64,000 nucleotides of DNA. It comes from Gammaproteobacteria bacterium. Lineage in GTDB: Bacteria > Pseudomonadota > Gammaproteobacteria > UBA4575. This document shows, piece by piece, positions 36,347-54,963 of this stretch. The stretch's first letter is position 1. Every line of letters starts with the position of its first letter. The DNA is taken from contig CBDCTA010000029.1 in assembly GCA_965221955.1 (NCBI GenBank), positions 512,001 through 576,000 on the forward strand, in the 5' to 3' direction. The notes under the pieces are model-generated. The model searched no databases and was not told the DNA's origin. It saw only the letters and a list, made by a program, of their open reading frames with translations. Both the position numbers and the translations under genes were made by a program.

Positions 36347-36347
36347 C

Positions 36348-36473
36348 AAAGAAGTCCTGATTTAAATTGATACTTCGTTAAAAATTATTCTCAATATCGT
36401 TCGTGTATGTATTAATACACGTCACTCATTTCGAAAATTTTTGTCTCGTCTCAAACTAAATCAAAACTTCTTT
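36348..36473 (+). repeat. Palindromic TIR element, copy A (fills secF/suhB gap)
   Basis: Ends AAAGAAGTCCTGATTTA / TAAATCAAAACTTCTTT (15/17 complementary); central GTGTAT..ATACAC hairpin; core 36376-36454 closely matches 40965-41041. Confidence 0.85.
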
Positions 36474-37315: not shown

Positions 37316-37322
37316 TATACAC

Positions 37323-37420
37323 TTATGTACATGGAAGTACTGTATGCCGGTTTTGCACGACTGCATGGATGCAGGAGATAGAACGAAGCAGGATGCTAGA
37401 GTCGAGGAGCAAAAACCGGC
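37323..37420 (+). repeat. Nested GGA-hairpin cassette (copy F); candidate Csr/Rsm-type small RNA or leader
   Basis: Outer 49-bp unit 43/49 identical to reverse complement of 47943-47991; 48-bp inner unit inserted in its CAGGAG loop; five GGA motifs. Confidence 0.75.
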
Positions 37421-40599: not shown

Positions 40600-40923
40600 A
40601 TGTCTATCTCGCTAACTGAAAGTGCAGCTACACACGTAAAAAGTTATCTTGAAAAAAGAGGTAAAGGTGTTGGTGTGCGGTTAGGAGTGAAAACCACGGG
40701 CTGTTCTGGTATGGCATACACCATAGAATTTGCAGACCAAATTGAAGATGAAGATCAAGTTTTTGAAGACAAAGGCGTTAAGGTTATCGTTGACCCTAAA
40801 AGCATGGTCTATCTTGGCGGCACAGAACTCGATTTTACTCGTGAAGGATTGAATGAGGGCTTTAAGTTTACAAATCCAAACGAGAAAGAGAGATGCGGGT
40901 GTGGAGAAAGCTTCAGTGTGTGA
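40600..40923 (+). CDS. iscA: Fe-S assembly protein IscA
   Basis: GCSG.AY, NPN....CGCGESF. Confidence 0.97.
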
Positions 40924-41071
40924 GGAAACTTTGAATTATTCTGCCTTAGTTTAATTGTTATGGTCGTTAAAAAATAATCACAAATCGTTCATGTATATTT
41001 AATACACATCACTCATTTCGATATTTTTTGCCTCGTCTCAACCGCTTCACTAATAAATCAAAGTTCCTTCA
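40921..41071 (+). repeat. Palindromic TIR element, copy B (iscA/hscB)
   Basis: Ends TGAGGAAACTTTGAATTATT / AATAAATCAAAGTTCCTTCA; core matches copy A; left end includes the iscA TGA. Confidence 0.85.
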
Positions 41072-43565: not shown

Positions 43566-43904
43566 GTGCCTAAAATTACATTTAAACCTCATGAAGAAAT
43601 TTGCCCAGAAGGCAAAGTGATCGAGGTAGAATCTGGTATCAGTATTTGTGATGCGGCTTTAAGTAATAAGATTGAAATAGAACATGCATGTGAGAAGTCG
43701 TGTGCGTGTACAACCTGTCATGTCTATGTGCGTGAAGGGTTAGATTCCTTAGCTGAGGCTGAAGAAAATGAGGAGGATTATCTTGATAAGGCTTGGGGTT
43801 TGGAGCCCGATTCTCGTTTGAGTTGTCAGGCGATTGTGGGTGAAGAAGATTTGGTGATTGAAATTCCAAAGTACACTATCAATATGGTTTCCGAAAACCA
43901 CTGA
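43566..43904 (+). CDS. fdx: ISC 2Fe-2S ferredoxin
   Basis: HACEKSCACTTCH, SRLSCQ, IPKYTIN. Confidence 0.97.
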   Translation: MPKITFKPHEEICPEGKVIEVESGISICDAALSNKIEIEHACEKSCACTTCHVYVREGLDSLAEAEENEEDYLDKAWGLEPDSRLSCQAIVGEEDLVIEIPKYTINMVSENH

Positions 43905-44028
43905 AAATGCGTATTTATGTCTCAATATGTCGTTGTTACAGTTTTTTCCAATGCTCATTTACAATCTAGTAAACTGCGCTTCTCAAAAACTGTGCGCCTA
44001 ATTTCGAGACAAAATCCACTATTTTCAG
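43901..44028 (+). repeat. Palindromic element, copy C (fdx/iscX; different terminal arms, same core)
   Basis: Ends CTGAAAATGCGTATTTATGTCTC / GAGACAAAATCCACTATTTTCAG; core CAATGCTCATTTAC..GTAAACTGCGCTT like copy E; left end includes the fdx TGA. Confidence 0.75.
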
Positions 44029-46067: not shown

Positions 46068-46840
46068 CGCTGCATAAGTTAATTTTGTTGAGCGTAATAG
46101 TGCTGATTTTATCTGCATGTGCGACCACTTCTAGCACAGATGAACCTCTGGGACAAAACCAAAAAGCTGCAGCAATTAATGTGCAGTTAGGCGTGAATTA
46201 TCTCGGCCAGGGCGAATTTGAGTTAGCAGATAAAAAATTACGTCGTGCTTTGAAACAAGATCCAAGTTCAGCAACTGCTCATTGGGTGTTTGCTTTGTTG
46301 CAGGAAAGACTGGGAGAAGAAGCTGTTGCAGAAAAACATTTTCGTAAAGCGATCTCTTTAGACCCTAAAGATTCTAAGGCGCATAACAATTATGGCACGT
46401 TCTTATGTAAGCAAGATCGGGTTGAAGAAGCAGAAAAAGAATTTCTTCGCGCGATTGAAAATCCTTTATACGCTGATGCAGCTTCTGCCTACGCAAATGC
46501 GGGTATTTGTGTTTTGAAAGTTCCGGATAAGGTAAAAGCGGAAGAATATTTTCAAAAGTCATTAGGCTTAAATGCTTCGCATCGTTCTGCTTTGTACCAA
46601 ATGGCATTGTTAACCTTTGAGCGTCAGGAGTTTGTGCAGACTTCATATTATATGCAGCGTTACGAGAGCGTAGCGAAACATAATTCCCAATCTCTGTGGG
46701 TCGCATATCAAACAGAGGCCAGTCTTGGTAACCAAGGTAAAGCAGACGACTATGCGCATCAGTTGAAAAGATTATATCCAGCTTCTCAGGAAGCGAGATT
46801 GTTAGCAGAAAGTTATTGGAATGCAGGAAGAAAAAATTAA
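46064..46840 (+). CDS. pilW: Type IV pilus TPR lipoprotein PilW/PilF
   Basis: Lipobox LSAC, TPR repeats, NNYG.FLC; position after rlmN. Confidence 0.9.
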   Translation: MTLHKLILLSVIVLILSACATTSSTDEPLGQNQKAAAINVQLGVNYLGQGEFELADKKLRRALKQDPSSATAHWVFALLQERLGEEAVAEKHFRKAISLDPKDSKAHNNYGTFLCKQDRVEEAEKEFLRAIENPLYADAASAYANAGICVLKVPDKVKAEEYFQKSLGLNASHRSALYQMALLTFERQEFVQTSYYMQRYESVAKHNSQSLWVAYQTEASLGNQGKADDYAHQLKRLYPASQEARLLAESYWNAGRKN

Positions 46841-47759
46841 TTTCGAGACACAAGAGTCGGCTAAAAAGTCGATTGAAAAAAGCGTAAGTATCGGCGCTTT
46901 GCTCGTGAACGCGCGTAAAGCTGCTTCATTAAGTCAAGTCGATGTTGCTGAACAAATAAATTTACCTTTGCGTATTGTAAAGGCGCTTGAAGCGGATGAT
47001 TTTGATAACTTACCAGAAGCTACTTATATCCGTGGTTATTTGCGCAACTATGCACGTATTGTTGGAATCAATGCAGATCTATTAATTAACACTTTTAAAG
47101 AACAGCATCATCAAGAGCCTGAGGTGATTACTCCAATACGCTCTAAACAAAGTTATGATCCTGCAATACTATGGAGCACGGCCGCAGTATTTACTATTCT
47201 TGTTGGTTTAGTGGTTACATGGTGGTTTGAATCTAATCCTGTAACTACACCGAGTGTTGAACTTGTTAGTAATGAAAGTACTGCGAAAACGAATACTGAG
47301 ATGAAGCAGGATTTTAAGCACCCTCTCGGTAGTAAAGATGAGTCGGCAGTAGCTGAAGTCCATGATGAACTCCCAGTGCCGATGATTGATCACCAAACAT
47401 CAGAAATGAATAATCCCAGCGTTGTTGATGTCATCACTGAAGATCAGCAACAAGCGATGGAAGATGAATCACGTAACCCTAATCTGGTGAGTCTAAATGA
47501 TGGTGCGCAGATGCTTACTGTCACCTATGTAGAAAAAAGTTGGACAGAAATCAGAGATGCCGATGCAAATACCCTTATGCAAGGTTTGATTGAGCCCGGA
47601 GTCGTGAGAAACTTAAGAGGAAAGCCGCCTTTTGAGGTTTTTCTTGGTAATGCACCCGGCGTAGTAATAGAAGTTAATGGGCTCTATTTTGATCATTCGC
47701 AATATAATAGAAGTAATCGCACAGCACGATTTCAGGTATCGAGCAGCTCACCCAATTAA
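46821..47759 (+). CDS. rodZ: Cell-shape protein RodZ
   Basis: HTH with YIRGYLRNYAR, TM helix, SW.EI.DA...GNAP.V. Confidence 0.92.
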   Translation: MQEEKINFETQESAKKSIEKSVSIGALLVNARKAASLSQVDVAEQINLPLRIVKALEADDFDNLPEATYIRGYLRNYARIVGINADLLINTFKEQHHQEPEVITPIRSKQSYDPAILWSTAAVFTILVGLVVTWWFESNPVTTPSVELVSNESTAKTNTEMKQDFKHPLGSKDESAVAEVHDELPVPMIDHQTSEMNNPSVVDVITEDQQQAMEDESRNPNLVSLNDGAQMLTVTYVEKSWTEIRDADANTLMQGLIEPGVVRNLRGKPPFEVFLGNAPGVVIEVNGLYFDHSQYNRSNRTARFQVSSSSPN

Positions 47760-47782
47760 ATTATTCTTTGCAGAGCCACTCA

Positions 47783-48032
47783 AAGAGGCTCTGATTTATT
47801 AATGCAATGGCTGATATTAGGCAAAAAATGTCGACAAATCTGCCAGGAGCAGATTTGGAAAGCTATGCTAGCCAAAGGCCGAGCGCCAGGAAGGTGCGAG
47901 TCAAATAAGCAATATGTATTGATTTATACATTAGCGATTTGATCAGTTTTTGCTACTGCAAAACTGGTATACAGTACTTCCATATACATAAGATCATTTT
48001 TAACAACATATCAGAATAAATCAGAGTTTCTT
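47783..48032 (-). repeat. Composite palindromic element, copy D (inverted copy-E scaffold carrying two inserted cassettes)
   Basis: TIR AAGAGGCTCTGATTTATT / AATAAATCAGAGTTTCTT; arms match reverse complement of copy E; inserts at 47831-47900 and 47943-47991. Confidence 0.85.
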
Positions 48033-48038
48033 CCAATA

Positions 48039-49328
48039 ATGTCTAAGCGAATACAATCCATTCGCGGCATGCACGACGTGCTGCCGCCAGACAGTAATAA
48101 GTTACGTGCCATCGAGCATGCTACTCAGGATATTTTACAGCAATATGGGTATCAAGAAATTCGCATGCCTATATTGGAACAAACAGAACTGTTTAAACGT
48201 TCGCTGGGTGAAGTAACAGATATCGTAGAAAAAGAAATGTACACTTTCGAAGATCGCAATGGCGATAGCCTAACTTTGCGTCCTGAAGGTACTGCTAGTT
48301 GCGTGCGTGCTGGGATTCAACATGGATTTATTTACGGTCAACCGCAAAGACTTTGGTATTGCGGACCATTTTTTAGACACGAACGTCCACAAAAAGGACG
48401 TTATCGACAATTTCACCAGCTTGGTGTGGAAACTTTTGGCTATGTTGGTCCTGATATTGATGCAGAGTTAATTATATTAAGTGCACAGATGTGGAAGAAA
48501 ATTAATCTTCCCATGCAACCAAAGTTAGAAATTAATAGCTTAGGTTCGTTACAAGCTCGAAAAAGTTATCGTGAAAAGCTCATTCATTACTTGCAGCAAC
48601 ATGAAGATAAGCTAGATAAAGAAGCGCGACAACGTTTACAAACCAATCCAATGCGAATTCTGGATAGTAAAAATCCTGACATGCAAGAGATCATTCAAAA
48701 TGCGCCGAGTCTTTTAGAACACTTGGATGTTGAATCTGCTGAGCATTTTTTACAGTTGCAAAAAATATTAGATACAGTAGGTATTGAATATCAAATTAAT
48801 CCACGCTTAGTGCGTGGTTTAGATTATTACAGTAAAACTGTATTTGAATGGATCGCAGATGGCTTAGGTGCACAAGCGACTATTTGTGCAGGCGGCCGTT
48901 ATGATGGATTGGTAGAGCAGTTGGGAGGCAAGCCCTGTCCCGCAGCGGGTTTTGCGATTGGTTTAGAGCGATTGGCTTCACTGCTAGAGGATAATCAAGC
49001 AGGGGATCAATTATCTAGTTCTTCAATAGATGTTTATATGGTCCTGATGGGCGAAGCGGCTGAAATTGCAGGTACTCAACTAGCCAGTCAGTTACGCAGC
49101 CAGCTGCCCACCTCTTCTGTGATAACAAATTGTGGTGGCGGTAGTATAAAATCACAAATGAAGCGAGCCGATAAGTCCCATGCAAGGCTGGCTTTTATTT
49201 TGGGCGAAGATGAATTGAAAGATCAAAATGTCACAGTGAAATTCTTGCGCGAAAAACGTGAGCAAGAAACTGTGGCACAAAATGAGTTAGCTGCTTTTTT
49301 GACAGCTTATCTTAGCAATAAACCTTAA
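48039..49328 (+). CDS. hisS: Histidine-tRNA ligase
   Basis: RGM.D.LP, KEMY.F, LRPEGTA, FR.ERPQKGRYRQF.Q, LVRGLDYY, GGRYDGL. Confidence 0.98.
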   Translation: MSKRIQSIRGMHDVLPPDSNKLRAIEHATQDILQQYGYQEIRMPILEQTELFKRSLGEVTDIVEKEMYTFEDRNGDSLTLRPEGTASCVRAGIQHGFIYGQPQRLWYCGPFFRHERPQKGRYRQFHQLGVETFGYVGPDIDAELIILSAQMWKKINLPMQPKLEINSLGSLQARKSYREKLIHYLQQHEDKLDKEARQRLQTNPMRILDSKNPDMQEIIQNAPSLLEHLDVESAEHFLQLQKILDTVGIEYQINPRLVRGLDYYSKTVFEWIADGLGAQATICAGGRYDGLVEQLGGKPCPAAGFAIGLERLASLLEDNQAGDQLSSSSIDVYMVLMGEAAEIAGTQLASQLRSQLPTSSVITNCGGGSIKSQMKRADKSHARLAFILGEDELKDQNVTVKFLREKREQETVAQNELAAFLTAYLSNKP

Positions 49329-54819: not shown

Positions 54820-54823
54820 CACT

Positions 54824-54950
54824 GAAGTTCTGATTTATCTTGCTATGTTGTTAAAAGCTCTCTCGCAATGCTCATGTATAAGTTTATACACTCCGCTTGC
54901 TCGAGATCTTTTGCCTAATAGCAGCCACTTCGTTAATAAATCAGAACTCC
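54824..54950 (+). repeat. Palindromic TIR element, copy E (between antitoxin and toxin)
   Basis: TIR GAAGTTCTGATTTAT / ATAAATCAGAACTCC (14/15); core CTCGCAATGCTCATGTATAA-gt-TTATACACTCCGCTTGCTCGAG. Confidence 0.88.
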
Positions 54951-54963
54951 CTTAAGCTTCATA

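Follow-up and report, generated by a model that had tools for sequence, protein, structure and literature searches.

The question raised by the rodZ-hisS spacer of this gammaproteobacterial genome is how a short intergenic gap came to be filled by a repeat that is itself interrupted by two further hairpin-rich segments, and whether those segments are able to move by themselves. The window, i.e., the whole stretch of 64,000 nucleotides that was analysed (G000:C29:512001-576000), belongs to an assembly of 2.69 Mb in 29 contigs, with 38.6% GC, 96.6% completeness and 4.3% contamination (the focal genome, G000). The spacer measures 279 bp there and only 21-38 bp at the orthologous, empty site of all 18 family relatives compared; in this survey 36 of the 41 genomes were matched and 20 loci were taken, from which the focal genome itself and one locus of another family with a different upstream gene were excluded. 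The additional DNA is a composite of an outer element, O (132 bp), and two inserts, A (69 bp) and B (49 bp), neither of which has TIRs or a target duplication (Table 1). The whole 250 nt fold at z = -6.2, with none of 200 shuffles as low. The composite is read here as an ERIC-like O carrying two unrelated non-coding cassettes, likely inserted independently through single-strand cut-and-join in trans, possibly of the HUH type, and to this combined reading we give a slightly better than even chance.

Table 1. Features of the focal locus and of the related copies discussed in the text (window positions, unless a contig of the focal genome is given).
Feature	Position	Strand	Remark
rodZ-like gene, upstream neighbour	46821-47759	+	ORF of 312 aa; NCBIfam RodZ E=2e-28, below the curated cut-off
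O left arm (left TIR ~47783-47800)	47783-47834	+	ends at the insert-A site TCGA^
Insert A, 69 bp, three conserved helices	47835-47903	+	ends fixed by the copies in G005, G007 and G010
O core hairpin	47904-47942	+	kept in the consensus fold of 43 O copies; 4 of 8 pairs changed on both sides
Insert B, 49 bp, two hairpins, inserted at TGA^GAT of O	47943-47991	-	site also filled in C21:10260, C18:16477 and metagenome contig L413
O right arm (right TIR ~48015-48032)	47992-48032	+	stops 6 bp before the hisS ATG (48039)
hisS, intact	48039-49328	+	429 aa; TIGR00442 E=1.5e-150, above the cut-off
O copy without A, B, C	36347-36471 (C29:548347-548471)	-	profile match
Second B copy, outside O, split by cassette C	37323-37419	+	49-bp unit plus 48-bp insert; no O match around it
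Cassette C, 48 bp, inserted at GCA^GGA in the second loop of B	37358-37405	+	12 copies in the genome
O copy without A, B, C	40921-41068 (C29:552921-553068)	-	profile match
Diverged O copy	43898-44025 (C29:555898-556025)	-	E=1.7e-12
Empty O copy (copy E of the first-pass annotation)	54821-54951	-	profile/alignment match
Three-level nests L061, L062, L064	C22:168262-168309, C17:40268-40315, C22:41276-41323	-	focal genome

The first-pass annotation had described this stretch as a TIR element with a GGA cassette on either side of its core hairpin, and most of that anatomy stands. The outer arms align in inverted orientation with the copy at 54.8-54.96 kb, at 80% over 56 nt and 85% over 33 nt, both hairpins drawn in the first insert are present in the sequence, and the reach of the element to 6 bp from the hisS ATG is seen directly. 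The limits of the second insert proved exact, with a 92% match to the inverted stretch 37322-37357. The first insert, placed at 47831-47900 (70 bp), was off by 3-4 bp, its real ends giving 69 bp and recurring in three other genomes; the core hairpin is confirmed, with its start moved from 47901 to 47904. Both GGA cassettes exist: the loops of insert A, at 47846 and 47889, lie on the mRNA strand, those of insert B lie on the minus strand, and the second of the two is mutated to AGTA in the focal copy. Nesting is likewise real, but the three levels proposed across the window resolve into two separate two-level nests, B within O here and C within B at 37.3 kb, and no O>B>C triple nest was found. 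True three-level nests of another composition occur elsewhere in the focal genome (Table 1), where a short palindrome holds a twin-GGA cassette, D, with C in the second loop of D. A further D-type GGA cassette (L068, C17:70391-70432, minus strand) interrupts a 5' tRNA-Arg fragment at the D-loop, upstream of an intact tRNA-Arg gene.

The gene order around the element has a peculiarity of its own, as in the family of the focal genome rodZ is followed directly by hisS (window positions 46821-48039), with no ispG between; ispG usually sits between these two genes. In the 38-bp rodZ-hisS spacer of G007 (L009), 13 bases are identical to the right end of O and may be what is left of an O that had been inserted there as well.

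The outer element was recovered by its profile at 47 loci of the focal genome (49 hits, none in the reversed genome), where it is 123-133 bp long and covers 5,997 bases, or 0.22% of the genome. A TIR of ~15 bp is kept at both ends of 38 of the 47 loci scored and is paired over 18 bp in the focal copy. Between co-directional genes O lies antisense in 29 cases and sense in 8 (p 8e-4), the focal copy being of the rarer, sense orientation. The abundance is patchy, with at least 40 copies in genome G041 against 1-3 BLAST hits in four other genomes, and no match to O was found in plasmids. In being small, non-coding, dispersed, bounded by TIRs and patchy among relatives, O resembles a MITE. Its ends tend towards T(Y)AA, and in 28 of the 29 antisense copies a stop codon directly adjoins the right end; the focal copy is without TA, and the spacer of the relatives is too distant to align. 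The target site duplication of ERIC is TA. The DDE family searched, IS630-type DDE_3, is present in 2 of the 56 family genomes, neither of them the focal one or G041, and no paired orphan TIR was noticed. Further small inserts or replacements in the core loop and the right arm are seen in the O copies L228, L229 and L281 and in those with a 15-bp right-arm extension.

Insert A recurs as a unit of 69-70 bp with identical ends, at the same position of O at other loci in G005 and G007, and outside O in G010, where it sits in a hairpin with a GAAA loop. Under a strict pattern A was found in 10 named genomes, mostly of Methylococcales, as well as in a Salmonella ERIC-type element and a T-loop copy; its first hairpin alone is present in 54 of 401 genomes of the class, with none in the reversed-pattern controls. 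A burst of A is confined to one genome, G041, with 27 model hits, 18 of which are of the focal 69-bp subfamily inside O. Among the contexts of A-type hairpins, 16 of 48 follow the GGTTCGA of T-loop copies and 14 of 48 lie on the same strand as a tRNA gene, at most 400 nt downstream of it. The helices covary, with two-sided change in 10 of 19 pairs (0 of 500 shuffles) and 94% of cells paired in an alignment of 16 sequences that includes the rrnB and E. coli ERIC copies. Five further family members in the focal genome, missed by the profile HMM, were recovered by a covariance model, and all five lie 70-210 nt downstream of tRNA genes, which answers the check proposed in the first-pass annotation, whether the first insert also occurs beside tRNA 3' ends, in the affirmative for relatives of that insert. 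The focal A itself adjoins no tRNA or rRNA end, so that the 18-19-bp upstream copy of a tRNA/rRNA 3' end which marks a TLR locus is missing there, whereas the other five members in this genome do have the TLR layout, and on its own it found no good match in E. coli.

Members of the same family were nevertheless located in enterobacteria. In E. coli K-12 one lies between the rrnB terminators, at GA^A in the duplicated 5S 3' end, and in E. coli NZ_AP019189.1 a cassette sits between yeiS and preT, in a repeat that is exactly 127 bp without the cassette; the same arrangement occurs in Salmonella enterica diarizonae and in a viral contig. These E. coli, Salmonella and viral repeats we take to be ERIC by our own recognition, the NZ_AP019189.1 record being without such annotation. 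A length of 127 bp is given for ERIC in PMC2229807. Judged by sequence and shared helices, insert A belongs to the family of the RrB core, the ERIC inserts and the tRNA T-loop inserts. Two features of its members were recorded besides. Several tRNA-linked copies (L143, L156, L161, L170 and those of G041/G022) are preceded by an inverted copy of the T-stem strand of that tRNA, so that part of the flank looks templated from the target. A cassette of the family lies in the 5' part of a 528-aa phage ORF, ParB/methyltransferase-like, with the frame kept open (L144:1501; viral loci L127-L135).

Cassettes B and C also occur apart from the focal element. B has 9 copies in the focal genome at E<1e-3, seven of them within O, itself so small a part of the genome: the right-arm site and the left arm are occupied three times each, and the seventh copy lies in an O that has lost its centre. 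The modules do occur separately elsewhere, on which the first-pass reading had staked itself. The copies of C lie within B, O and other GGA cassettes. In the family B was detected in 9 and C in 11 of 56 genomes (controls 0), and within O the orientation is constant, B being antiparallel at 19 of 19 loci and C parallel at 7 of 7. Metagenomes hold at least 121 B loci with at least 115 distinct copies, 110 without an O match among the matches listed. Among these same matches, the base before B is a purine in 112 of 113 copies, the target being mostly ATGR^, the unit ends with ATAA at the 49-nt position in 73 of 113, and at least three loci are exact head-to-tail arrays. A 1-bp duplication of A at B was considered and rejected, since among the matches listed 39 of 113 copies are preceded by G and nevertheless end with A. 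Among the matches listed, the commonest metagenome hosts of B belong to two other repeat families that look undescribed, and in one of these C is inserted too, ~20 bases further on (L312, L314, L337, L344, L354 and many of L311-L430). A generic scan for twin GGA hairpins did no better than its controls (63 vs 52 and 52).

A common junction rule emerges when all insertions are written on the reference strand of O, where each of the three cassettes has C as its first and A as its last base and lies next to a preceding purine, in most cases the A of a GA or CA, and where the GGA loops are parallel for A and C and antiparallel for B. The preceding base is a purine for B in 28 of 30 cases and A for C in 30 of 37, and the second base before insert A is G or C in 45 of 45, the A directly before the cut being fixed by the search pattern itself and the right end of A being called to within 1 nt. 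The hierarchy of units targeting hairpin elements that had been suggested is better described as a network, because A, B and C each enter O directly and C also enters B and other cassettes. In folding of 80-nt reconstructed targets, a length too short for the long stem of O, a preference for hairpin targets showed for the tRNA class only, where the median z was -4.1 for tRNA-linked A (n=12), against -0.82 for other A (n=33), -0.56 for C (n=37) and -0.13 for B (n=30). In the empty focal element, as reconstructed, both cuts fall 3' of two GA placed opposite each other in one 2x2 internal loop, which explains the symmetric look of the composite in the first-pass annotation; this fold is obtained with RNA parameters and is less clear with DNA ones. 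The tandem-GA position also holds for A in G007 and B in C21. As a rule, it was rejected and is kept as a lead only, for it fails with A in G041, where 16 sites fold as paired, and with left-arm B. The bases after the first hairpin, taken as a guide, fit the T-loop targets and the ATG target of B by eye, with no covariation.

These observations suggest a sequence of events. O would have entered the rodZ-hisS spacer after the species had split from the sampled relatives, and A and B would each have been inserted at a short strand-specific motif in O. The inserts would move independently of O, as is seen for A in G041 and as the several sites and hosts of B make plausible for the latter. A released single-stranded circle may then join 3' of a short motif, as in IS200/IS605 and REP/RAYT; this step, for which we would put the odds somewhat short of even, is suggested by the resemblance of the cassette 3' end to its own target (for B, ATAA vs ATGR) and by the exact head-to-tail multimers. 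For IS200/IS605 and REP/RAYT, HUH single-strand transposition is established, and by analogy an HUH-type transfer is our best, though tentative, guess for the chemistry. The guide-pairing rule of IS608/ISDra2 and the REP/RAYT cleavage site CT, when applied by hand, do not fit the ends of A, B and C. The resulting locus would probably be tolerated rather than selected.

The enzyme behind such a transfer was sought in the genomes that hold the cassettes. At its 96.6% completeness, the focal genome contains no Y1_Tnp, IS630-type DDE_3, IS110 Transposase_20 or RVT_1. Y1_Tnp is present in 8 of the 56 family genomes; of the 12 with B or C just 2 have it, and G010, assembled as a single contig, holds all three cassettes and no Y1_Tnp. 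At 27 Y1 loci no A, C or O match was found nearby; two weak B hits (E 0.018 and 0.1) lie beside ordinary IS200-like TnpA genes, without cassette flanks. Across the class, Y1_Tnp occurs in 46 of 53 genomes with the first hairpin of A against 221 of 346 (Fisher p 8e-4). Genome size and kinship confound this difference, and 7 of 54 genomes with A gave no Y1 hit; one genome, G094, is counted within the 54/401 and within 268/400, is absent from the A-positive row of the Fisher test, and had its locus dropped from all analyses. In G041 no cassette adjoins the Y1 gene, which lies on C8 and encodes 230 aa, or the AbiP2 reverse transcriptase, and no transposase or reverse transcriptase tested tracks the cassettes.

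Two other chemistries have to be weighed against single-strand transfer. Insertion from RNA, in which a reverse transcriptase, or else a host polymerase, would write short structured RNAs into nicked repeats and nicked copies of tRNA ends, is unlikely. It would suit the E. coli family member RrB, which is transcribed and processed according to PMC8144298, as well as the position of the tRNA-linked A copies on the tRNA sense strand, the sense bias of the GGA strand of B (19:6, p 0.015), and the fact that G041, with its burst of A, is the only one of five genomes with a reverse transcriptase. That enzyme, however, is an AbiP2-type defence reverse transcriptase with no cassette within 20 kb, and RVT_1, found in 12 of the 56 family genomes, was not found in the B/C carriers G000, G002, G004, G005, G007, G010, G015 and G021. 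The cassette ends are exact, with neither tails nor 5' truncation. Furthermore, the GGA strand of C is unbiased (~10 sense, 9 antisense) and that of A is sense here but antisense in 3 of 3 relatives; for these two it does not track transcription, which points to targeting at the DNA level.

About equally improbable is that host enzymes suffice, with template switching at hairpins or a housekeeping tyrosine recombinase copying cassettes between folded single strands. The lack of any dedicated enzyme that tracks the cassettes is in keeping with this, the focal genome has four tyrosine-recombinase hits, and the inverted T-stem copy often found before tRNA-linked copies would suggest templated fold-back synthesis. 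Template switching, however, copies nearby sequence and would not yield the same 69-bp ends in O, in ERIC, in a 5S-end copy and in a T-loop copy; the junctions have no common 6-8-bp crossover core, and a burst in a single genome suits a transient trans-acting factor better.

Whatever the chemistry, nesting by independent insertion is very probable, and G041 provides the evidence for insert A. The tree of O in this genome was built from 16 filled backbones, with A removed, and 40 empty copies, the latter being the scored BLAST matches among 106 candidates; the filled copies L231 and L237 (2 of the 18) were excluded, the right half of O being incomplete in them. A single clade of A-bearing backbones is rejected (p-AU 4.6e-12), and the A status changes 11 times on the tree, at least seven of these changes being forced. 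The inserts are 93% identical to one another against 77% for their O backbones, without correlation between the two (Mantel rho 0.15, p 0.18). The motif AGA^A is present at 16 of 16 filled and 17 of 40 empty copies (p 4e-5). Gains and losses look alike on such a tree, but had A been lost precisely from many backbones, the inserts that remain would not be younger than the O copies around them. Judged by these comparisons, A entered existing O copies of G041 repeatedly and on its own, a finding that is new here. The insertion site lies 2 nt to the right of the focal one, so A reached O more than once across lineages, and one diverged A is on the other strand of O. All four states of O with respect to A and right-arm B exist, namely both (the focal copy), A only (G005, G007), B only (C21, C18) and neither.

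It is quite improbable, by the same evidence, that each insert entered O only once or a few times and then spread with transposing O and by gene conversion among O copies. Several O copies are indeed filled at common sites, two filled copies, L192 and L222, are sisters whose flanks agree over 16-17 nt, and filled copies group slightly on the tree (11 of 500 shuffles had as few changes, the shuffled mean being 14.1). The flanks of near-identical A pairs, however, are identical over a median of 4 nt on the left and 9 on the right, exactly as for random empty targets (4 and 9), and this absence of excess flank argues against gene conversion. With the polyphyly and the missing correlation in G041, with A sites that differ between lineages, and with A, B and C also found in hosts unrelated to O, joint spread accounts for some copies and not for the origin of the junctions.

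As to consequences for hisS, the predicted fold has 6 unpaired bases between the long stem and the ATG, and the pair of GGA loops that A brings into the mRNA, ~150 and ~190 nt ahead of the start codon, could be putative CsrA sites. That the composite is a selected cis-regulatory leader, placing hisS under CsrA control, is very improbable all the same. The focal genome has csrA, insert A brings its loops into the rodZ-hisS mRNA, RrB binds CsrA through GGA loops in vitro (PMC8144298), the stem is predicted to end close to the start codon, and the focal O lies in the rarer of the two orientations (8/37). Against this, the element is absent from 18 of 18 relatives, the loops are far from the start codon, and those of B are antisense, one of them mutated. 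None of the evidence gathered shows a regulatory role in the hisS leader, and the locus is probably a tolerated insertion, which is the simplest reading of an intact hisS and of the absence of the element from relatives.

An assembly chimera of repeats, which 29 contigs and 4.3% contamination might have raised and which the first-pass annotation had named as its own undoing, is virtually impossible, since contigs of two studies span the junctions and the insert ends agree to the base with other genomes. A contig of study P2 spans 47721-48102 with one mismatch, and overlapping contigs of study P1 cover 47500-48026 and 47999-48300; no single piece spans all of the 801-nt query, and P1 or P2 may be the window's own source. 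The stretch is present in a marine metagenome run, with no RNA run among the listed holders. Elsewhere in the focal genome, C14:8.2-10 kb and C23:9.2-11 kb are near-identical, including a recombinase match and a C copy, which is probably assembly redundancy.

The wider proposal is that A, B and C represent one widespread, undescribed class of 47-77-base cassettes without TIRs, target duplications or genes, which a single strand-transfer enzyme would place 3' of a purine, in folded repeats or in copies of tRNA and 5S ends. We consider this possible, though rather less than an even bet. If true, insertions of one class would account for the ERIC inserts, for the tRNA-linked repeats and, between the rrnB terminators, for the CsrA-binding RrB, and G041, caught in a burst, would be a genome in which to look for the enzyme. 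Where ERIC inserts and tRNA-linked repeats come from has long been asked, and the locus ties both to one cassette family, giving exact ends and a target rule, with one genome that shows repeated independent insertion; the question becomes a search for one enzyme with a defined substrate. To our knowledge, cassettes of 47-69 bases moving precisely without TIRs would rank among the smallest mobile units. They would also scatter potential CsrA sites through intergenic DNA.

Several parts of this picture are already described, namely TLRs, RrB and TwoAYGGAY (PMC8144298 and PMC4333381). In the literature searched, with subscription papers and bioRxiv supplements outside its scope, no paper was found that treats the cassettes as one independently mobile class, or that treats O or B. 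With REP/RAYT and IS200/IS605 the cassettes share non-coding hairpin units, the absence of target duplication, strand-specific insertion 3' of a short motif and tandem multimers (PMC3733652); they differ in having no linked Y1 enzyme flanked by the same hairpins and in that the first hairpin starts at the first base. TwoAYGGAY (RF01731) has twin hairpins with AYGGAY-like loops, as in B and C, and its descriptions propose CsrA binding and suggest a mobile-element-like expansion (PMC4333381; bioRxiv 10.64898/2026.09.22.753630). B and C differ in being without the long basal stem and in being precise inserts in other repeats, and at the 43-bit threshold of RF01731 no copy of A, B, C or O matches, the four sub-threshold hits lying elsewhere. 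Full-length sub-threshold matches to TwoAYGGAY in the focal genome include C5:52065-52230 (minus strand, 36.2 bits) and C29:69046-69208 (minus strand, 31.3 bits). At the gathering level, Rfam recovered only tRNAs in the window and nothing meaningful on the element. One A-family copy scores 25.1 bits with AaHKsRNA22 (RF02902), which has the same hairpin layout; this is below the gathering score of 39.8, and the focal A is unmatched.

RrB of E. coli is closer, as its 73-nt core between the rrnB terminators aligns with A and forms the same three helices. Stenum et al. 2021 (PMC8144298) present RrB as a conserved CsrA-binding sRNA, the word 'mobile' being absent as far as the main text goes, and state of TLRs that they 'have no known function'. 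In sequence O stands apart from ERIC, the O profile giving no match at E<=10 on three ERIC-bearing sequences; a short core motif, written post hoc after both had been seen, is common to them and present in 18 of 43 O copies. The side of insertion differs, A lying 3' of the core in ERIC and 5' of it in O, and no B was seen in ERIC. ERIC/IRU elements reportedly carry internal inserts of ~70 bp at fixed sites (Sharp 1997; De Gregorio 2005; Wilson and Sharp 2006). The arrangement described here adds no new principle to this, for it parallels ERIC with internal inserts: both O and ERIC are palindromic repeats of ~127-132 bp with a central hairpin and with inserts at fixed sites.
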